This document shows, piece by piece, positions 1,816 through 8,507 of a DNA stretch of 9,150 bases. The translations under genes were made by a program, and so were the position numbers. Under the pieces are notes generated by a model. It was given only the letters and a program-made list of their open reading frames with translations. It ran no database searches and had not been told where the DNA came from. This DNA comes from a virus (taxonomy: Duplodnaviria > Heunggongvirae > Uroviricota > Caudoviricetes), in IMG/VR virus record IMGVR_UViG_2698536574_000022. One strand, given 5' to 3'. Each line of letters opens with the position of its first letter. Position 1 is the first letter of the stretch.

Positions 1816-2138
1816 CACAACCTCCTGTATTGGACGTACACCAGTCCTGATAAATATGAGGCTGTCTCGTCAGTGATTCAATACAACTATTGGGTATAGT
1901 TTCTGTGATTTTGTTCTGTAGAAATGGAACATAATAACCTGTCACCACCAGCACTTCTTTAAATACGCCAAGTCCGACGCAAGCTAACCTTCTAGCCCGC
2001 TTTGAGCGAAGAACGGACTGAGTAATTCAGGCCGTTAGCGACACTATGACATCATTAGCAACCAACTAGGAGTTGGTAATAGATGAGTTAATTAATTGAT
2101 TAAAAACCGACGATTTTACTAGATTACGGGAAGAAGAA

Positions 2139-2156
2139 AGGCCGCTGGTACGGCCT
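2139..2156 (-). terminator. Weak intrinsic terminator after the small coiled-coil gene
   Basis: Hairpin AGGCCG-CTGGTA-CGGCCT at 2139-2156; minus-strand downstream sequence is TTCTTCTTCCC (pyrimidine-rich, imperfect U-tract). Sits 26 nt past the stop of the 2182..2379 ORF. Confidence 0.4.
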
Positions 2157-2181
2157 CCCAGAGACTAGTCTATTGTTATGC

Positions 2182-2379
2182 TTAGAAACGCTTTTCTATC
2201 TCTTTTTCTCTTTCGTTTATTGCATCGTCAATGATTTTTTTTGCTGAATTAATTTGTGGTGTTTTTTCTGGTAATACATCTTCAAGATCTTTGGCAATTT
2301 TCTTTAATTTATCGATTTCTTTAGTTAAATCAGTTACAGATTTATCCGCTATTGACTTTGTCATTTTTCCATATTCCAT
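2182..2379 (-). CDS. Hypothetical small K/E-rich coiled-coil protein (65 aa)
   Basis: Track ORF MEYGKMTKSIADKSVTDLTKEIDKLKKIAKDLEDVLPEKTPQINSAKKIIDDAINEREKEIEKRF. AT-rich codon usage like the rest of the insert, followed by its own hairpin. No strong SD; alternative start at ATG 2364. Confidence 0.45.
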   Translation of the reverse strand: MEYGKMTKSIADKSVTDLTKEIDKLKKIAKDLEDVLPEKTPQINSAKKIIDDAINEREKEIEKRF

Positions 2380-2552
2380 TCAATTTATTTATCAATCAGT
2401 TACCCGTAAACCTTATCATGGATTCCAATTATCGACAGCTGGGATTTTTACTTTCTTGATCTGCCCCAGGCGAATGACATATCCCCATTAACCAATGTCC
2501 GCTCCTAGCACTTAGTAGACATTAATAGATTGTAAGCGTTCCCGTCATGTAG

Positions 2553-2933
2553 CGGTCACCGATTGGTGATGAATTGAAGCGGATCATTGATGAAAGTCGC
2601 AATAACGTGGCCAGCCCATTTATCGTTCACCAGATCCCGGAACGGCAGGTTAAACGCAGCAAAGAAGTTTCTCATCCCACTCAAGTTGCACCAGACTATT
2701 TGAGTCGGTCGTTTTCAGCTACGCGTGACAAGCTGGGTTTATATGACAAACGGCCGATGGATGAAAGGCCAACCTTTCACGAAATTCGCGCCTTAGCAGC
2801 ACATCTTTTTGATCAGCAGGGCATCGATCCACAAGGACGAATGGCACACAGCGATGCGAAATCAACTAAAATCTACACGCAAAACCATATCGACTGGGTT
2901 GTAGTTCCACATGGAGAAATTAAAGCCAGCTAG
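2553..2933 (+). pseudogene. Lambda-type tyrosine integrase, 3' fragment only (C-terminal ~125 codons)
   Basis: Track ORF 2574..2933 starts at TTG; the frame is open back to a TAG at 2550-2552. C-terminus PTFHEIRALAAHLFDQQGIDPQGRMAHSDAKSTKIYTQNHIDWVVVPHGEIKAS aligns with the lambda Int C-terminus as I recall it (PTFHELRSLSARLYEKQ...LLGHKSDTMASQY...DKIEIK), including the catalytic His and Tyr positions. All three frames upstream of 2550 hit stops within about 20 codons, so the N-terminal ~230 codons of a full integrase are absent. Confidence 0.65.
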
Positions 2934-3031
2934 CACCAAGTAAGGCATAGAATTTTATTAACCAAGGAGCATATGACCAGTAATTAATTCTTACCGGAAA
3001 GTTAGCCCTGCTAAAATTAATATTAACAAAT

Positions 3032-3063
3032 AAAAAAATAGGGGCAAATATTTATATTTGCCC
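3032..3063 (-). terminator. Rho-independent terminator of the nucleotidyltransferase-effector operon
   Basis: 9-bp stem GGGCAAATA (3042-3050) / TATTTGCCC (3055-3063), loop TTTA; on the minus strand it is followed by CTATTTTTTTATTTG (rc of 3027-3041). Located 12 nt past the effector stop codon. Confidence 0.65.
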
Positions 3064-3074
3064 TCGCAACATAT

Positions 3075-3656
3075 TTATCTTCTTTTCAGTTCCTTGGGAA
3101 GAAAAGCATCTATTTCTTCTTCAGAAAATGTTAAATCTTCTTTGTTTTTTAATGCGTCCTGTGCTTTTTTATAAGCTTCAAATGTTGTACTAGGAGAGCC
3201 TGAATACACTGAATGTAAACTCTCGAGTAACGAATCCCGCTCTGACTGCAATTGCTCGATTGGTTTTTCACCCATTGCTAAGTCTGTAAGCAATGATAAA
3301 TACTTTTCTCGGATTAACCAGATCTCATTTGCAGCCTGCTTATGTTTTTGCGCCAACTCACCAAGGTCATAATCTTTGGTATAAGCGTTAAGAATGAGAA
3401 GCAGTGTTGAAACAACAATCCCAACCCCCGTGCCTACTTCACCCGCGCCGAAAAAAGTTGCTAGAAAGCCTCCAGTAGTTAAGGCGGAGAGAATTATTTG
3501 CCAAAACTTTATAGAAGATAGTCGAGATAGGAGAATGTCTGAGCATTTTTCATGCGTCTTATGTGAGTAAACGACCCGACCATAACACTCTCTGATCTGC
3601 CCTTCTAAAACCCTTCTAGATTCAGGTGTATCCTTAGTCTGGAAATGTTGATCCAT
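3075..3656 (-). CDS. Two-transmembrane effector, SLATT-like (predicted pore-forming or membrane-disrupting partner of the nucleotidyltransferase)
   Basis: Track ORF 3075..3713; preferred start ATG 3656-3654 with GGGAGA about 4 nt upstream, giving MDQHFQTKDTPESRRVLEGQIRECYGRVVYSHKTHEKCSDILLSRLSSIKFWQIILSALTTGGFLATFFGAGEVGTGVGIVVSTLLLILNAYTKDYD... (193 aa). Layout is an N-terminal helix, two hydrophobic segments (WQIILSALTTGGFLATFF and GVGIVVSTLLLILNAY) and a roughly 95-aa helical charged C-terminal region. Overlaps the upstream gene by 23 nt (80 nt if ATG 3713 is used). Confidence 0.7.
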   Translation of the reverse strand: MDQHFQTKDTPESRRVLEGQIRECYGRVVYSHKTHEKCSDILLSRLSSIKFWQIILSALTTGGFLATFFGAGEVGTGVGIVVSTLLLILNAYTKDYDLGELAQKHKQAANEIWLIREKYLSLLTDLAMGEKPIEQLQSERDSLLESLHSVYSGSPSTTFEAYKKAQDALKNKEDLTFSEEEIDAFLPKELKRR

Positions 3657-4515
3657 AAATCTCCCGCCATTTTTGCTTAGCCGACCATTCGCGTTTTGGG
3701 GTCGCCATTTCATGCTCTATAGCTTCGAGTGAAATGTTATAGCACCGTTTTGCTTTATATTGGAAAAGCCCTTTACCATAGACATACTGACCACTTCCTG
3801 GCGCTTTCCAATACTCCTTACTCGTATCTTGATCAGCCATCCATTTGAAGAAATCACGACTCATGAAATCGTAGTAAAGATACGACTTATCTCTATGCGC
3901 CCAATTTTCAATGAATTGATACGCAAGCGTATCAATGAGTAAACCACTTATAGGTACATCCCATTTACGCTTCCAAGCTCTTGCCATTCTACAAAGTTGC
4001 ACCAAATTGTTATTGGTAATGTTATTTCTTAACCTCATTGCAGAAATTTCTGGCTTTGGATTTGTAATCCTCCAACGGCCACCACCGTTCGCATCAGGAA
4101 ATGTGTAACTATCACTAACATTGAGGAAAGCTGGAACGACTTCAAATGTAATTCCATCATTGAACGGTACAAGGATCACTTGACCGTCACCTCTAATACT
4201 AGTGGTAGCATAGGTTTTTTCAATAGATCTCTTAACCGCTTGAAGCAATGCTGACTGCCCATTTCCTAAGTAGCTATTGTATTTTTGATACTCGGAATAT
4301 GGTAGCTGAAAAATCATATCCAGATCGCTCAAGCCTTGCGTAGCTGTGTTCCGACCATATGATCCAACGTAGAGACTATGAGAAGTATCAGAACTGCTAT
4401 CCCAAAAATCCGTATTTAAACGCTTCGTTATATTCCTATATCTAGTTGAAATTGTTCCACCATCTTTTACAGTAAGATTGGAGCAAAATCCGCAAAACCA
4501 CTCAGCTAAACCCAT
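3634..4515 (-). CDS. CD-NTase / SMODS-family nucleotidyltransferase (cGAS/DncV-like; predicted cyclic nucleotide second-messenger synthase)
   Basis: Track ORF 3634..4521 starts at TTG; preferred start ATG 4515-4513 with AAGGA about 8 nt upstream. Translation MGLAEWFCGFCSNLTVKDGGTISTRYRNITKRL...YVGSYGRNTATQGLSDLDMIF...GQVILVPFNDGITFEVVPAF...RWRITNP... shows the Pol-beta-type GS-x11-DxD motif plus a downstream acidic residue in an h-h-F-D-G-hh-EVVP context. About 293 aa, typical of minimal CD-NTases. Assignment is by motif recognition, not a search. Confidence 0.8.
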   Translation of the reverse strand: MGLAEWFCGFCSNLTVKDGGTISTRYRNITKRLNTDFWDSSSDTSHSLYVGSYGRNTATQGLSDLDMIFQLPYSEYQKYNSYLGNGQSALLQAVKRSIEKTYATTSIRGDGQVILVPFNDGITFEVVPAFLNVSDSYTFPDANGGGRWRITNPKPEISAMRLRNNITNNNLVQLCRMARAWKRKWDVPISGLLIDTLAYQFIENWAHRDKSYLYYDFMSRDFFKWMADQDTSKEYWKAPGSGQYVYGKGLFQYKAKRCYNISLEAIEHEMATPKREWSAKQKWREIYGSTFPD

Positions 4516-4661
4516 GCTCAATTCCTTTTCTAAAATCTAATGAAAAATTCAAGGGCGCATGTTCCATGCATCATTGATAACTTTTTTCAGTCAGCTAGAG
4601 CAACATAATTGATACTAACTAGCTGTTTCTTCAAGTGAGTAACCTACTTTAGCATCAAGGT

Positions 4662-4690
4662 ATTATACCTACCAAGCATGGGGAGAAACC
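4662..4690 (-). promoter_or_regulatory. Candidate promoter for the NTase-effector operon
   Basis: Perfect -10 TATAAT on the minus strand (rc of 4662-4667), about 150 nt upstream of the NTase ATG; the -35 is poor (GGTTTC/TGGTTT at 17-18 nt spacing). Position and hexamer only. Confidence 0.3.
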
Positions 4691-4829
4691 ACCACTTAAG
4701 CCATTGAAGTATATAGAGCAGATTTTGTTGAAAAAGCACTGTTTGTCTATACATATGAATATGTGCTTTTAACCAGCAATAGCGCGGCTCTCAGCGTTTT
4801 ACAAGCAGTGTCATGGGGTGTCGGGGATC

Positions 4830-4857
4830 GGAAGTTCAAATCCTCTCGTGCGACCCA
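4830..4857 (+). other. tRNA 3'-end-like fragment (T-arm, acceptor 3' strand, CCA); possible integration-site (att) remnant
   Basis: GGAAG-TTCAAAT-CCTCT (4830-4846; T-loop consensus, stem with one A-C mismatch), then 7-nt CGTGCGA, discriminator C and CCA (4855-4857). No complementary 5' acceptor strand within 80 nt upstream, so this is not a complete tRNA. Confidence 0.35.
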
Positions 4858-4870
4858 AAAGATTATATAA

Positions 4871-4896
4871 ACCAGCCTGTTATTGCTGGTTTTTTA
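4871..4896 (+). terminator. Intrinsic terminator-like hairpin following the tRNA-like fragment
   Basis: ACCAGC-CTGTTATT-GCTGGT (4871-4890) followed by TTTTTTA on the + strand. An inverted copy of the stem sequence (AACCAGCAATA, 4771-4781) lies about 100 bp upstream. Confidence 0.45.
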
Positions 4897-5049
4897 TGCC
4901 TACCTTCCTGGTAGGGAAGCTATGGGGAATTACTGGGGAATCCCCCCCCTTTACCTGCTCCCATTAAACTAACATAGCACGATGTAAGCAACTTCCGCTT
5001 CTGGCACAAAGCGGACAACCACGCTAGCTCTACCCTGTGCCACAAAATG

Positions 5050-5508
5050 TCAATTTACATCTGAACTAATGCACTTTAATCTCGTCACTTCAAAAAAATA
5101 CCGAACATCCCCCTGATAAAACGACAATATCCGCTGCATAACTTCGCTTTTACGACACTCAGTACAAATTATATTATGACGCCTGTCGTAACGACGTATT
5201 TCTCCATCAGGTAATGACCAGATAAGGTCCGGATCAACCGCAGATGGTTTCTTCAGCTTTGCCCTTGAGAGCTTTTTACGGGCATTTTGCCAGTCCTTAC
5301 GCGCCTGTTCAGACGGGAATAACCCGTAACCAGAGTTGTATACATCGCCACTGGCAACCAGCTCTCTGGCCAGAACGCTCATCAGATATCTTGTTGCCCC
5401 AGTTTTAGCTTCCTGTTGTCGTAACGTCTCGCGCCCACTCTGGCGTACGAGTTCAAGAACCTGCCCTTTAATTTTTTCCCGCTCTTCTTGTGTAAAAACT
5501 TTTGCCAC
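5050..5508 (-). CDS. Hypothetical prophage protein (152 aa), distal gene of the replication-side operon
   Basis: Track ORF with GTG start at 5508-5506 preceded by consensus AGGAGG (rc of 5513-5518). Translation (M)AKVFTQEEREKIKGQVLELVRQSGRETLRQQ... No Walker motif (not a DnaC/P-type helicase loader) and no domain I can assign. Confidence 0.6.
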   Translation of the reverse strand: MAKVFTQEEREKIKGQVLELVRQSGRETLRQQEAKTGATRYLMSVLARELVASGDVYNSGYGLFPSEQARKDWQNARKKLSRAKLKKPSAVDPDLIWSLPDGEIRRYDRRHNIICTECRKSEVMQRILSFYQGDVRYFFEVTRLKCISSDVN

Positions 5509-5548
5509 AAGCCCTCCTGAAAATTACCTCATGACCAGAAATACACAC

Positions 5549-6136
5549 TTACCCCCTGAAGCCCGGTGGAATTTCGGTATCCGGTTCAGAAATATGATTC
5601 ACACAACGCTGGTTGTTCGTACCGCTTACCGGGAGCAACCAGGGGTTTTCAAAATTCCGGTCCGGTCCAAAAAACGTCGTCGCTCGCTGAACAAATTCCG
5701 TTCCCGTTTTCCCGGTAGCCGCCAGGTATCTTGCGTAACGCCTCACACCATCCAGCATGGCCTCTGGTGGCACCCCCTCGCGTAATCTGGCCTTCCAGGC
5801 ACTGAAAGCGGATTTCTTCGGGTTTGCCCCAGCACGCAACGGGTATTCCCGCCAGACCTGTTCGAACACATCCGGATAATCTACTCGCCCCACAGGCTGC
5901 CCGGTGTTTTCCGGGACTACCCGATCGGCTTCCCGCTGAATGGCGGAATCGGCTTCAGGCTGCTGCAGTTGGTGTGATTGCTCCGGCCTTGCGGTCATCA
6001 CCTGCTGCACAGCGCCCGAATCGGCTTTCAGCGCATACGCTGAATCGGCTTCCGGTGTCGTGCCTGCTGGCTGACCAGGATTGACGGTCTGAACATCCCC
6101 TGCCTGGTTCGTGGCGTTTTTTACGCCATGGACCAT
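5549..6136 (-). CDS. Replication-associated protein: low-complexity linker plus conserved C-terminal domain
   Basis: Track ORF 5549..6223 begins at TTG; first ATG is 6136-6134 (MVHGVKNATNQ...). Pro/Gln/Ala/Thr-rich linker, then DYPDVFEQVWREYPLRAGANPKKSAFSAWKARLREGVPPEAMLDGVRRYARYLAATGKTGTEFVQRATTFFGPDRNFENPWLLP, which I recognise as a phage replication-protein type of domain (memory, unverified). Its 5' end overlaps the upstream ORF in another frame, so it may be the C-terminal part of a frameshifted single initiator gene. Confidence 0.55.
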   Translation of the reverse strand: MVHGVKNATNQAGDVQTVNPGQPAGTTPEADSAYALKADSGAVQQVMTARPEQSHQLQQPEADSAIQREADRVVPENTGQPVGRVDYPDVFEQVWREYPLRAGANPKKSAFSAWKARLREGVPPEAMLDGVRRYARYLAATGKTGTEFVQRATTFFGPDRNFENPWLLPVSGTNNQRCVNHISEPDTEIPPGFRG

Positions 6137-6609
6137 AGTGTTTTGATCTTCTTGATCTGTATCTTTATCTGTATCTTTATCTGTCGTGACATGTGCGTGA
6201 CATTTCGTGACGCGCCGTGACAATCGCCATTTTGTTCCCGCTTTCTTTCCCTCTCTCGCTGCGCCCTCTTGCGCTCTGCAGGAGATTTTGCGGTTTGCGA
6301 AATATTGCCGTTGTCCTCTTTAAGCACCTGGCGTTTTTCCCATCCAGTGATTAAATCACCATCAAGTACCCGCCCCTGCATCGTCTGCAAAATTGAATCA
6401 ATTACCTCTTCTGTCACGTCGAGCGCACTTGCCAAATCTTCTGTCGTGACATCAATGTGACCTCGCGTGACATTTCGTGACGCGCTCACCAGGAGGTGGA
6501 TATACACTGCCATCACTGTTGCAATTGGCTGCCCTGACACCCTGGCAATTGTTCGCCACTTAGGGTCATTTGGCATGTCATGCCATAATCTGAGCCAAGC
6601 GTTAGCCAT
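6121..6609 (-). CDS. Replication initiator / replisome-organizer N-terminal domain protein (lambda O-like role); contains the iteron arrays
   Basis: Track ORF 6121..6615 starts at GTG; preferred ATG 6609-6607 with GAGGTG 3-4 nt upstream. N-terminus MANAWLRLWHDMPNDPKWRTIARVSGQPIATVMAVYIHLLVSAS resembles phage replisome-organizer N-terminal domains. The gene body contains two arrays of four phased GTGAC repeats, as the lambda O gene contains ori. Confidence 0.65.
   Translation of the reverse strand: MANAWLRLWHDMPNDPKWRTIARVSGQPIATVMAVYIHLLVSASRNVTRGHIDVTTEDLASALDVTEEVIDSILQTMQGRVLDGDLITGWEKRQVLKEDNGNISQTAKSPAERKRAQRERERKREQNGDCHGASRNVTHMSRQIKIQIKIQIKKIKTLWSMA
6155..6184. repeat. Tandem 12-bp repeat (ATCTGTATCTTT x 2.5) in an AT-rich stretch with two GATC sites
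   Basis: Direct reading: ATCTGTATCTTT at 6155-6166 and 6167-6178, then partial ATCTGT; GATC at 6145-6148 and 6154-6157. Encodes IKIQIKIQIK in one minus frame and TDKDTDKDTD in the overlapping frame. Confidence 0.8.
6186..6221. repeat. Iteron-like array A: four GTGAC motifs at 10-11 bp phasing
   Basis: GTGAC at 6186, 6197, 6207 and 6217, immediately adjacent to the AT-rich tandem repeat. The block CTGTCGTGACAT...GCGTGACATTTCGTGACGCGC (6181-6215) is duplicated at 6441-6485. Confidence 0.6.
6446..6481. repeat. Iteron-like array B: four GTGAC motifs at 10-11 bp phasing
   Basis: GTGAC at 6446, 6457, 6467 and 6477, plus an inverted copy (GTCAC) at 6414-6418. A near-duplicate of array A lying about 260 bp away inside the same gene. 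Confidence 0.6.
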
Positions 6610-6680
6610 ACTCACCTCTTCTGATACCGAATCTTTTTACTCACGAGTTGCCGGAAGCGATTCGATATGGCTATTGTCAG

Positions 6681-7106
6681 TCAATGTACTGCCACAGCAT
6701 TTCCTGCCGGGCCACCACGGTTCATCTGATTGAAACCGGCGATTGCCACTGCGACAAAATCATCAGCGTCTCTCACCAGTCGCTCCCGCGTCTCCACCAG
6801 CTCCCGAAAATAAGCTGAACTGTGGCTGCGCATTCTGGCCACCAGCAAAGGTGGCCTTGCCTTTTCGATCGCTGGTAACAACGCCTGAATTTTTTCAACT
6901 GCATCAGGGGTATCTTTCTCTATCCAGCGGAAAATTTTCTGGGTATTGCGAGCCAGGGCTTCCGGATGGCTGTCGTCGTACAGTTCAGGAAACGTCATAC
7001 CCAACTCAAAATAAGCCTGGGTTATTCCAGCTGCCGGAACTTTTTCGCCATCAGGACGCGCCCAGGCATTCATCGCCATGCGGATGTGTTCATGCTTGAT
7101 TTTCAT
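6681..7106 (-). CDS. YdaT/CII-like prophage regulator (141 aa)
   Basis: Track ORF 6681..7178; preferred start ATG 7106-7104 (MKIKHEHIRMAMNAWARPDGEK...) preceded by GGGGGG 5 nt upstream. It sits immediately after the Cro-like gene, in the cII position. Family name is from memory. Confidence 0.55.
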   Translation of the reverse strand: MKIKHEHIRMAMNAWARPDGEKVPAAGITQAYFELGMTFPELYDDSHPEALARNTQKIFRWIEKDTPDAVEKIQALLPAIEKARPPLLVARMRSHSSAYFRELVETRERLVRDADDFVAVAIAGFNQMNRGGPAGNAVAVH

Positions 7107-7332
7107 GAATCCCCCCTTGGTTAGAAGGCGGATTATGATCAGAACCGGGAATGACAACCGTCGGTATGTGTAACTCATATTTGAGCGCCCCGGCAGTGAC
7201 TGCCTGAATTAGCAACGCCCATTTCCACGGAACCTCTTCCCCCCACATGCTGACTGTGGTTTTTGACGTTCCTAGAGCTGCGGCTGTTTTAACAACTCCG
7301 CCAAAATAGCCTAATACTTCTGATTTTTTCAT
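7090..7332 (-). CDS. Cro-like HTH regulator (YdaS-like)
   Basis: Track ORF 7090..7380 starts at TTG; preferred ATG 7332-7330 with GGAG 7 nt upstream. MKKSEVLGYFGGVVKTAAALGTSKTTVSMWGEEVPWKWALLIQAVTAGALKY... has an HTH and is divergent from the CI-like gene across an operator-containing intergenic region. Confidence 0.7.
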   Translation of the reverse strand: MKKSEVLGYFGGVVKTAAALGTSKTTVSMWGEEVPWKWALLIQAVTAGALKYELHIPTVVIPGSDHNPPSNQGGIHENQA

Positions 7333-7360
7333 GAGTCGCTCCATAAAACTGAACGCCAAA

Positions 7361-7424
7361 AGTTTAATAATCAAAACCAAAGAAAGTCAAGAAACAAAAC
7401 CATCTGTGTTTTAAAATCAAAACA
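7361..7424. promoter_or_regulatory. oR-like divergent control region: operator palindromes and back-to-back promoters
   Basis: Palindrome TGTTTT-AAAATC-AAAACA at 7407-7424 overlapping the CI-like ATG; degenerate copy AGTTTA-ATAATC-AAAACC at 7361-7378. Minus strand: -35 TTGACT (rc of 7385-7390), 18-nt spacer, -10 TAAACT (rc of 7361-7366) aimed at the Cro-like gene. Plus strand: -10 TAAAAT at 7412-7417 ends 6 nt before the CI-like ATG with no SD, consistent with a leaderless transcript. Confidence 0.55.
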
Positions 7425-8062
7425 TGAGCAAGCAAACAATATCTGAACGCATAACCCAACGTATGCATGCGCTAAACCTGAAAGGCAAAGACCTTGTCAA
7501 TGCCACTGGCGCATCAAAAGGCTCCGTAAGTCAATGGATGAACGGTGGAGGAGCGCCGTCCTCGCGTTACATAAGTTCACTGGCAAAAATATTGAAAGTA
7601 AACGAAAATTGGCTTCTTAATGGAGGAGAGTTAAATACAGGTGATTCGCTTGATCTATCTTTACCGCCGATAAAAACGGTTCCGCTACTATCACTTCAGC
7701 AGGCAGCAAGCTGGAGTGATTATATGAAAAATTCCTCAATAACCTCTTGTGTGCAGCTTGTCGGAGAAATCCCGGCCAATACCTTTGCAGTTGTTCTAGA
7801 GAGTGACAGTATGTCAACATCTGGTGGGGGAGTTTCCATCCCAAATGGTTCAACAGTTTTTGTTGATCCCAATCGAACCGTACAACCAGGAAATATTGTC
7901 CTTGCCTTACCCAAAGGGACCACAACACCTGTCATTCGTAAACTGGAGATAGAAGGGCCGGATATTCTTTTAGTCCCCACGAATCCTCGCTACCCTTCAA
8001 TTATGCTGGATGATCTATCTTGCATATTGGGCGTATGCTTTAAAATTCAACAAGATATTTAA
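7424..8062 (+). CDS. CI-like phage repressor: N-terminal XRE-type HTH plus C-terminal S24 (LexA-like) autopeptidase domain
   Basis: Track ORF, 212 aa. HTH region LKGKDLVNATGASKGSVSQWMNGGGAPSS...NENWLLNGG; C-terminal domain with Ser in AVVLESDSMSTSGGG and Lys in VIRKLEIEG, with the conserved spacing of LexA/cI Ser-Lys dyad proteins. Confidence 0.9.
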   Translation: MSKQTISERITQRMHALNLKGKDLVNATGASKGSVSQWMNGGGAPSSRYISSLAKILKVNENWLLNGGELNTGDSLDLSLPPIKTVPLLSLQQAASWSDYMKNSSITSCVQLVGEIPANTFAVVLESDSMSTSGGGVSIPNGSTVFVDPNRTVQPGNIVLALPKGTTTPVIRKLEIEGPDILLVPTNPRYPSIMLDDLSCILGVCFKIQQDI

Positions 8063-8128
8063 CCGACCTCATCTATTTGATTAACTGTATGCCATCGTGG
8101 TGATGGCTTAACAGCTGCCTGCTTAAAA

Positions 8129-8175
8129 TGTTTTGATAAAAAAACATTGACCTGAAAAGTTCATTTTTCTAAACT
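8129..8175 (+). promoter_or_regulatory. oL/pL-like operator plus promoter for the rightward small-gene operon
   Basis: Palindrome TGTTTT-GATAAA-AAAACA at 8129-8146 (same consensus as the 7407-7424 site), abutting -35 TTGACC (8147-8152), 17-nt spacer, -10 TAAACT (8170-8175). The same -10 hexamer is used by the pR-like promoter. Confidence 0.5.
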
Positions 8176-8354
8176 TCATTCATTCCCTCTCCCCACCCCA
8201 CAGAATGCAGGGCAATACTTCGAGTTACCAGGCAGTGGTCAGGGGTTAAGTAGCCAGCCCGAGGCGTAAGAACATGACGGCAGGGTTCAACTTTAATAAC
8301 TATGCAGCAGGTTTTTGTTCCGCTACCCCGGCGTTAAGGGGAAATGAGGTCAGC

Positions 8355-8507
8355 ATGGATACTATCGATCTTGGCAACAGCGAATCTCTGGTATGTGGCG
8401 TGTTCCCCAACCAGGACGGTACGTTCACCGCGATGACGTATACCAAAAGCAAAACGTTTAAAACTGAAGCTGGCGCGCGTCGCTGGTTAACCAGAAACAC
8501 TGACTGA
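8355..8507 (+). CDS. Small prophage protein, YdfA-like (50 aa)
   Basis: Track ORF 8274..8507; preferred start ATG 8355 with GAGGT 4 nt upstream. MDTIDLGNSESLVCGVFPNQDGTFTAMTYTKSKTFKTEAGARRWLTRNTD; resemblance to the small Qin-prophage YdfA family is from memory. Confidence 0.55.
   Translation: MDTIDLGNSESLVCGVFPNQDGTFTAMTYTKSKTFKTEAGARRWLTRNTD

Follow-up and report, generated by a model that had tools for sequence, protein, structure and literature searches.

A SMODS cyclase and a SLATT_4 membrane protein as a probable minimal type I CBASS operon in a Qin/Rac-like prophage of Escherichia coli

Membrane proteins, among them those called SLATT4 and SLATT6, are described as the most abundant effector class of CBASS, the anti-phage signalling systems based on cyclic oligonucleotides (PMC12480259), and two-gene operons that join such an effector to a cyclase are known to defend their hosts. 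In E. coli, the EcCdnF04-SLATT6 and EcCdnF05-SLATT6 operons gave at least 10,000-fold protection (Richmond-Buccola et al., 10.1101/2023.05.21.541620), and for CdnF04-SLATT6 this protection, again of at least 10,000-fold, was reported against phages of five families (10.1101/2023.05.21.541620). A type I CBASS from a lactococcal plasmid has also been cloned, and phage resistance with a phenotype like that of abortive infection (Abi) was confirmed (Grafakou et al., NAR 2024, PMC11381338). Here we analyse a cassette of two genes, a cyclase of the SMODS family of CD-NTases (nucleotidyltransferases that resemble cGAS and DncV) and a SLATT_4 effector, which is found on the minus strand of a viral DNA stretch of 9,150 nucleotides (IMG/VR record IMGVR_UViG_2698536574_000022), hereafter the window. 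The cassette is very probably a minimal type I CBASS anti-phage operon that travels as cargo of a lambdoid, Qin/Rac-like E. coli prophage. This supports the original prediction, made from the sequence alone, which had described the locus as a minimal CBASS-like module. Actually, the system is already known, as both genes are annotated in RefSeq and covered by PADLOC, and defence has been demonstrated for relatives built from the same parts. It departs from the anatomy of type I CBASS only in a glutamate at the third catalytic position of the cyclase, which its relatives share, and in the lack of an AGS-C domain.

The lactococcal system can be likened to this cassette by description, not by sequence. 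Both consist of two genes on a mobile element, and the lactococcal effector (pUCCL631_167, 190 amino acids, aa) is a SLATT protein assigned to PF18186, which is SLATT_4. Nevertheless, the lactococcal cyclase (pUCCL631_168) is an NTase/AGS-C protein of 408 aa, whereas ours has 293 aa and no AGS-C Ig-like sensor domain, and the host is a Gram-positive bacterium with the system on a plasmid instead of a prophage. The CdnF04 and CdnF05 operons are also pairs of a cyclase and a SLATT-type effector with two transmembrane segments (2TM), and they come from E. coli, but their effectors belong to SLATT_6 and their cyclases carry AGS-C. A pair of this type is present in E. coli PM22, where a SMODS+AGS_C cyclase of 432 aa, 41% identical to ours over 293 residues, accompanies a SLATT_6 protein; from its architecture only, we infer that it is the tested BIDMC103-type operon. 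In PM22 this pair and a DUF2188 gene lie within a type I restriction-modification (R-M) operon, between hsdS and hsdR (locus L090, 274-8934). SLATT_4 and SLATT_6 showed no detectable homology by BLASTP (E=0.09) or by hhalign (probability 0.1%), and therefore the SLATT6 experiments are an analogy and not a test at the level of the family. Sister cassettes in which a SMODS+AGS_C cyclase is paired with SLATT_4 itself occur in Trabulsiella odontotermitis (L085) and Enterobacter sp. (L083). Their effector is 63% identical to ours and their cyclase core 43% identical to our cyclase, and they share with our cassette the gene order and the glutamate at the third catalytic position; they differ in the additional AGS-C domain of about 140 aa and in the junction, where the genes overlap by 35 nt or stand about 60 nt apart rather than overlapping by 23 nt.

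Regarding the gene layout, the reading-frame analysis recovered the two overlapping minus-strand open reading frames (ORFs) of the original prediction, at 3075-4515, and the RefSeq coding sequences of E. coli 2013C-4991, whose DNA is 100% identical to positions 3000-4750 of the window, match them (Table 1). The cyclase starts at the ATG at 4515, which is preceded by AAGGA at 4523-4527, and its stop codon is at 3634-3636. The longest ORF would begin at a TTG (3634-4521), and RefSeq agrees with the ATG. The effector starts at the ATG at 3656, behind a Shine-Dalgarno sequence GGGAG at 3661-3665, and stops at 3075-3077; nearly all of its homologues have 193 aa. A longer effector ORF (3075-3713) was considered and rejected: it has no Shine-Dalgarno sequence, and homologues and profiles begin at the residue encoded at 3656. 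Thus the predicted overlap stands, but the extent of the effector had to be refined to this start, which makes the overlap one of 23 nt. Since the Shine-Dalgarno sequence of the effector lies within the cyclase gene and the two genes overlap, the arrangement suggests that translation of the effector is coupled to that of the cyclase. The pair also has the terminator of its own that had been proposed for it, with a stem at 3042-3063 followed by a T run to about 3032, and this was the sole terminator-like site between 2900 and 5100 in a consensus scan. Upstream, the candidate promoter of Table 1 lies within a block that is conserved between the window and the prophage loci L003 and L004, although the number of promoter-like sites in the scan did not exceed the shuffled expectation and the evidence is weak and at the level of the consensus.

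By its profile matches, the product of the upstream gene is a full-length SMODS/CD-NTase. It matched Pfam SMODS (PF18144) with 171.6 bits (cut-off 26.5; E=2.1e-50) over the whole profile, 1-164 of 164, and the PADLOC model CBASS Cyclase PDLC00786 with 477 bits (E=4.7e-144) over 1-292 of 293, as one of 23 PADLOC models of CBASS oligonucleotide cyclases that it matched. In the same Pfam and PADLOC profile searches it matched no toxin-antitoxin (TA) or Abi nucleotidyltransferase (NTase) model. With E-values from 1e-50 to 1e-144 for the profiles of both proteins, a chance match is excluded. With the NCBIfam equivalog model CBASS_cyclase_b it scored only 116.9 against a cut-off of 200 and is thus no equivalog in the sense of this one model. 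The GS-x11-DxD motif noticed in the original prediction is present in VGSYGRNTATQGLSDLDM, as G51 and S52, then 11 residues, then D64-x-D66. A third acidic residue had been placed in FNDGITFEVVPAF (residues 118-130), and there is indeed one, but it is Glu125 and not an aspartate; it aligns with the catalytic Asp of P. aeruginosa CdnD, PaCdnD (FEVVPAF versus VDAVPAF). G51, S52, D64, D66 and E125 are invariant in 31 cyclase homologues, and judged by these residues the active site is catalytically intact.

In the work of Ye and colleagues of 2020, PaCdnD is said to belong to a type III CBASS that is regulated by HORMA/Trip13 and has a different effector. By sequence it is the closest solved structure (PDB 6p8u, 6p82 and 6p8j), and it has the GS, DxD and VPAF motifs in common with our cyclase, although its third catalytic residue is an Asp and the relationship in sequence is weak (phmmer against 6p8u, 38.8 bits, E=7e-9). 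The alignment extends over residues 27-292 and thus spans the C-terminal helical domain. The next solved structure is a Cap10-associated CdnD (9ntn), and a profile search agreed with phmmer. An AlphaFold2 (AF2) model of the cyclase was built with an alignment of 31 homologues, all of them at least 78% identical. The 20 best Foldseek matches of this model in the PDB were all bacterial CD-NTases (CdnD, CdnE, CdnC, CdnG, CdnB and DncV), with PaCdnD on top (E=6e-9, 23% identity); MiD51 and cGAS followed them, and LnuA appeared at rank 30 (E=0.06). We take this result as corroboration and not as a structural demonstration because the TM-scores were low, as stated below.

Compared over its full length, the cyclase has 41-43% identity with AGS-C cyclases that are paired with SLATT_4 or SLATT_6. 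In phmmer searches of the PDB, PaCdnD was matched by our cyclase and by both AGS-C relatives compared (those of PM22 and L085), and 9ntn by our cyclase and that of L085, while none of the three matched a CdnB or CdnG structure. Among the type I clades, AGS-C is found in B, F, G and H and not in A, C, D and E (10.1101/2023.05.21.541620). By this distribution, its identity to AGS-C cyclases and the PDB neighbours shared with the AGS-C relatives, the cyclase probably belongs to, or adjoins, CD-NTase clade F. The AGS-C cyclases that are only about 43% identical to ours partner SLATT_4 effectors about 68% identical to our effector, which suggests that the interface between effector and signal was retained while the sensing end of the cyclase was swapped. 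As our cyclase carries no AGS-C extension, the sequence gives no hint of what activates it.

The downstream product had been called SLATT-like, and the profiles identify it as a full-length SLATT_4 protein: Pfam PF18186 gave 247.7 bits (cut-off 27; E=6e-74) over the entire profile, 1-165 of 165, NCBIfam NF033632 gave 150.3 bits (cut-off 55), and the PADLOC model CBASS Effector 2TM matched with E=1.4e-84. Its expected build, an N-terminal helix, two transmembrane segments and a helical tail, was recovered as well, with a tail of about 100 aa. A first hydrophobic segment lies at about 49-71 and a second at about 77-92, with a GAGEVGTG loop between them; Kyte-Doolittle windows of 19 residues exceeded 1.0 when centred on residues 50-65 and 71-87, with peaks of 1.56 and 1.87. 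The hairpin is flanked by an N-terminal region of about 47 aa and the helical C-terminal region. There are 8 Lys/Arg before the membrane segments and 15 after them, and the short loop is acidic, a distribution that fits a two-helix hairpin with both termini inside. The AF2 model is all-helical and best predicted at residues 101-150.

An alignment of 64 diverse SLATT_4 members (34-67% identical) shows that in the membrane segments only the small size of the residues is conserved, and that almost all the polar and aromatic residues conserved across the family sit in the cytoplasmic helices. The strongly conserved positions are R22, E23, Y30, H32, K33, H35, E36 and K37 in the N-terminal helix, and H105, W113, R116, E117, Y119, D125, R140, D141, Y151, P155, Y162, E173, F177, E181, D183, L186 and P187 in the C-terminal helices. 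From this pattern we infer that the cytoplasmic helices are the regulatory, and probably the nucleotide-binding, part of SLATT_4. Cap14 is a CBASS membrane effector of the 2TM-SAVED type. Cap15 (S-2TM-beta) is described as a small inner-membrane effector with two transmembrane segments that disrupts the membrane once the product of its cyclase activates it (PMC12657218). Both of them possess a recognisable soluble domain for nucleotide binding (beta-barrel or SAVED), whereas SLATT_4 has helices only and no Pfam sensor domain. Their membrane-disruption model is nevertheless the working model that we borrow for SLATT_4. We found no account of how any SLATT protein is activated in the literature searched, and the work on DRT10 calls the mechanism of SLATT activation an open question.

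The pairing of the two genes was surveyed within the SLATT_4 family, which comprised 1107 cluster representatives at E<=0.001. We examined the loci of 80 species-representative genomes that encode a relative of the effector, 59-92% identical, and that come, judged by the titles of their records, from Proteobacteria, Nitrospirota, Planctomycetota, Chloroflexota, Bacteroidota, Acidobacteriota, Cyanobacteria and several candidate phyla. A SMODS cyclase was found directly upstream and on the same strand in all 80. It was a cyclase of about 293 aa in 64 loci (median identity 71%), a SMODS+AGS_C protein of about 433 aa in 15, and part of a fused ORF in the remaining one. The identical 23-nt overlap is present in 54 of the 64 loci with the shorter cyclase. 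There was no conserved third gene: once shadow ORFs had been removed, even the commonest families of flanking ORFs, subunits of type I R-M systems, were confined to at most 7 of the 80 loci. HsdM/HsdR-like neighbours were seen at the AGS_C/SLATT_4 loci L061, L063, L064, L072 and L076. In Pectobacterium jejuense (L012) the cassette, 86% and 89% identical to ours, is followed about 0.4 kb downstream by a second cyclase of 453 aa that bears AGS_C (4997-6407), so that two CBASS cyclases stand in tandem.

The other ORFs of the window are phage genes, and there is no Cap2/Cap3, HORMA/TRIP13 or other PADLOC defence protein among them, apart from an HTH match. Therefore, as there is no accessory gene in the window and none conserved beside the pair in the 80 loci, the earlier classification as a type I, two-gene system is right. 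Both genes are under strong purifying selection. Compared with three relatives of 86-92% protein identity, the cyclase had a dN/dS (non-synonymous over synonymous substitution rates) of 0.06-0.10 and the effector one of 0.02-0.05, values that are approximate because dS is near saturation. The invariant pairing, the lack of a third gene and the selection taken together indicate an obligate, selected two-gene unit, that is, a type I CBASS.

On the basis of CBASS biology and of the tested relatives, we propose that phage infection would switch the cyclase on. Phage escape from type I CBASS has been traced to the genes of the prohead protease and the scaffold, and the toxicity of EcCdnD12-4TM needs both an active cyclase and a phage scaffold domain (10.1101/2023.05.21.541620); if our system is like these, its cue probably has to do with virion assembly. 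The cyclase would then turn nucleoside triphosphates into a cyclic oligonucleotide, which may bind the cytoplasmic part of SLATT_4, formed by the N-terminal helix and the C-terminal helices and carrying R22, Y30, H32, K33, H35, K37, H105, W113, R116, E117, R140 and Y162. Upon binding, the effector would oligomerise and permeabilise or depolarise the inner membrane, and the infected cell would die or arrest before progeny are released. Such abortive infection would protect the lysogen population and, with it, the prophage.

The window belongs to a lambdoid prophage of E. coli that resembles Qin/Rac, with a cI-like repressor, cro, a YdaT-family gene, replication genes, a DUF977 gene, the cassette and hokD/sok in this order; nin/RusA/Q-like genes come after hokD/sok, just outside the window. 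The cassette occupies a variable cargo slot with a G+C content of 0.36-0.42, against 0.50-0.56 in the flanks. The backbone of a near-identical prophage in E. coli EC261 is homologous to positions 1-2009 and 4953-8486 of the window only, and the 2.9-kb stretch of the slot is replaced there by two unrelated genes. Listed in order, the slot of the window holds a small ORF, an integrase remnant, the cassette, a fragment of tRNA-Pro and a terminator-like hairpin at about 4868-4896.

Table 1. Positions in the window of the cassette, its signals and the surrounding slot
Feature	Coordinates	Strand	Basis or remark
Cyclase gene (CD-NTase/SMODS)	3634..4515	-	293 aa; RefSeq WP_000521772.1, 'SMODS domain-containing nucleotidyltransferase'
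Effector gene (SLATT_4 two-transmembrane protein)	3075..3656	-	193 aa; RefSeq WP_000371964.1, 'SLATT domain-containing protein'
Gene overlap, 23 nt	3634..3656	-	3' end of the cyclase on 5' end of the effector
Intrinsic-terminator-like hairpin GGGCAAATATAAATATTTGCCC and T run	3032..3063	-	consensus scan; 12 nt past the effector stop
Candidate sigma-70 promoter TAGACA-16-CAAAAT	4722..4749	-	scan; 9/12 consensus matches
Variable cargo slot	2010..4952	.	flanked by the hokD/sok region and by the DUF977 gene of the replication module
C-terminal remnant of a tyrosine integrase	2534..2933	+	convergent with the cassette; C-terminal part of Pfam Phage_integrase, below cut-off
Degenerate 3' fragment of tRNA-Pro, att-site remnant	4807..4857	+	alignment with L003/L004

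The integrase remnant is labelled 'recombinase, frameshifted, incomplete' in RefSeq, and related prophages have a full integrase of 392 aa at its position. The fragment on the other side, at 4807-4857, is presumably derived from tRNA-Pro, by its likeness to the E. coli proL sequence, and ARAGORN detected no complete tRNA there. In related prophages an intact version of this fragment is found at the junction between chromosome and prophage, and the intact fragment and a full-length integrase enclose a 78%-identical copy of the cassette in other enterobacterial prophages. The cassette with the integrase end is 78% identical in nucleotides to L003, and the order att, cassette, integrase at the ends of the enterobacterial prophages L003-L006 is mirrored in the window, which suggests capture by recombination between prophages. 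Judged by this order, the cassette looks like att-proximal cargo of a phage that integrates at tRNA-Pro, cargo that was later recombined into the present prophage.

Other genes are found in the same slot of related prophages, in E. coli EC261 (L008, 3960-5939) and in L009 (5024-5968). One encoded protein of 333 aa matched GNAT marginally, one of 320 aa did so with HEPN_RES_NTD1, and one of 314 aa had no match; PADLOC recognised none of this alternative cargo. These genes could be uncharacterised defence cargo, and the comparison suggests that the slot may be a defence hotspot.

Elsewhere the cassette adjoins R-M and PIN genes and sits in mobile elements. A cassette at least 99% identical is present in 47 of 5426 complete E. 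coli genomes (47 of the 48 carriers), always on the chromosome, and three of the complete genomes match the stretch 3000-4750 with 100% identity. Proteins identical over the full query length were found on at least 1000 contigs for the cyclase and likewise for the effector, and relatives of the effector on 97 plasmids. Among sequenced phages, megablast gave no match, and at the protein level only two Listeria phages matched, with a cyclase 44% identical. In E. coli AUSMDU00014361 (L091, 2158-3687) IS1203 interrupts the cyclase gene; apart from this the cassette is identical, and its SLATT gene is intact. This strain is a viable clinical isolate and thus a natural cyclase knock-out.

Some further observations concern the prophage itself. 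The hokD/sok type I toxin-antitoxin locus is intact at 1359-1683 on the minus strand, with a Hok-family ORF at 1359-1571 (hokD at 1359-1514 in RefSeq) and the antisense RNA sok at 1509-1683 (Rfam, 110 bits); sok was the only hit of an Rfam scan of the window, which found no known RNA element near the cassette. A frameshifted IS421 of E. coli 2013C-4991 (L001, 9000-10336) is absent from the window at about 1336-1347, and the window thus stems from a relative of this strain rather than from the strain itself. The cI-like repressor (7424-8062, plus strand) is a single intact ORF of 212 aa with an HTH and an S24 peptidase part. RefSeq annotates a 'LexA family protein' of 112 aa there in 2013C-4991, without any sequence difference within the ORF, which looks like a discrepancy in the annotated start site. 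At 6183 the window lacks 10 bp (GTCGTGACTC) that are present in 2013C-4991, and this deletion splits a replication-module gene of 356 aa (5549-6615, minus strand), labelled 'replisome organizer' elsewhere, into two overlapping ORFs at 5549-6223 and 6121-6615. As the deletion shifts the frame of this gene, the prophage is probably replication-defective.

Several points weigh against the reading of the cassette as a type I CBASS operon. The combination of a 293-aa cyclase without AGS-C and a SLATT_4 effector was not found among the tested operons in the literature searched. The AF2 model of the cyclase is poor, with a mean predicted local distance difference test (pLDDT) of 61 and values below 50 at residues 163-211, and its Foldseek TM-scores to CD-NTases are about 0.3. 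No in vitro activity or product has ever been seen for the probably related clade F enzymes (10.1101/2023.05.21.541620), and therefore the cyclic oligonucleotide itself has to be deduced. No SAVED, STING, CARF or beta-barrel sensor could be recognised in the effector by Pfam or in its AF2 model, this model is of moderate confidence (pLDDT 70.7), and its PDB matches are generic helical bundles only, which makes the proposed ligand site a conjecture. Finally, the cassette has a promoter that is a weak consensus match, so that expression in the lysogen is predicted at most, and it is flanked by decayed elements, the remnants of the integrase and of the att site.

The last two of these points, together with the frameshifting 10-bp deletion in the neighbouring replication gene and the one strain with an insertion sequence in its cyclase gene, would be expected of a decayed or silent passenger, one that came into the prophage through illegitimate recombination and has lost its expression or function in this host. 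However, both ORFs are intact, the ribosome-binding sites, the overlap and the terminator are preserved, dN/dS is between 0.02 and 0.10, and the cassette recurs nearly or fully unchanged in the carrier genomes and its proteins on the many contigs mentioned above; we consider a silent passenger very unlikely. Still less credit is due to the idea that the enzyme is a non-signalling NTase of the AbiEii/MNT or antibiotic type, families to which a best match would have refuted the original prediction, and that it forms a TA or Abi pair with a membrane toxin. The Pol-beta GS...DxD motif is common to both families, and the NTP_transf_2 profile does reach 17.1 bits, but this is under the cut-off of 21, no single stretch passes it, and consequently these alternatives are not supported. 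The full-length SMODS match, the PADLOC matches to CBASS cyclases and to no TA or Abi NTase, the alignment to PaCdnD through the C-terminal helical domain and the CD-NTases, rather than MNT or LnuA, as nearest structural neighbours all argue against it.

The last alternative, which we regard as improbable although slightly less so than the other two, keeps the signalling and inverts its sense: a nucleotide made constitutively by the cyclase would hold SLATT_4 off, and phage sponges or nucleases would deplete it and thereby release killing, as in Panoptes. Two-gene systems of a synthase and a 2TM effector with such a logic do exist (Panoptes, PMC12657218; minimal diadenylate cyclases, DAC), and the lack of a classical sensor domain in the effector and of stimulated activity in vitro in the apparently related clade F enzymes would agree with it. 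Nevertheless, the described systems use mCpol or a minimal DAC with S-2TM-beta or CARF-TM (PMC12657218), whereas the synthase here is a SMODS protein and the effector a SLATT_4 protein, and the toxicity of EcCdnD12-4TM requires an active cyclase and a phage protein. The viable E. coli with IS1203 in the cyclase gene and an intact effector also speaks against an inverse guard, but only weakly, since the insertion probably has a polar effect on the effector gene. Type I CBASS therefore remains the reading that we prefer.

The identification as such changes nothing, because standard tools (PADLOC and RefSeq PGAP) already recognise both proteins. The locus does, however, provide a native E. coli model that is convenient for an abundant and biochemically uncharacterised subtype, and in which the product and the activation of a cyclase without AGS-C and the reading of the nucleotide by SLATT can be studied. 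The mapping of conserved residues offers H105, W113, R116, E117, R140, Y162 and the YSHKTHEK helix as targets for mutagenesis, and the sister cassettes, which combine the same effector family with a 43%-identical AGS-C cyclase, are suited to component swaps. The locus is, besides, an example of defence cargo on the move between prophages, captured here along with att and integrase remnants. If inverse signalling were true, it would bring a Panoptes-like logic into an operon of the CBASS family; in a milder and likelier version, SLATT_4 might use its conserved, all-helical cytoplasmic bundle to bind a product so far not observed for this lineage of cyclases, which would make the bundle a cyclic-nucleotide receptor of a new kind.

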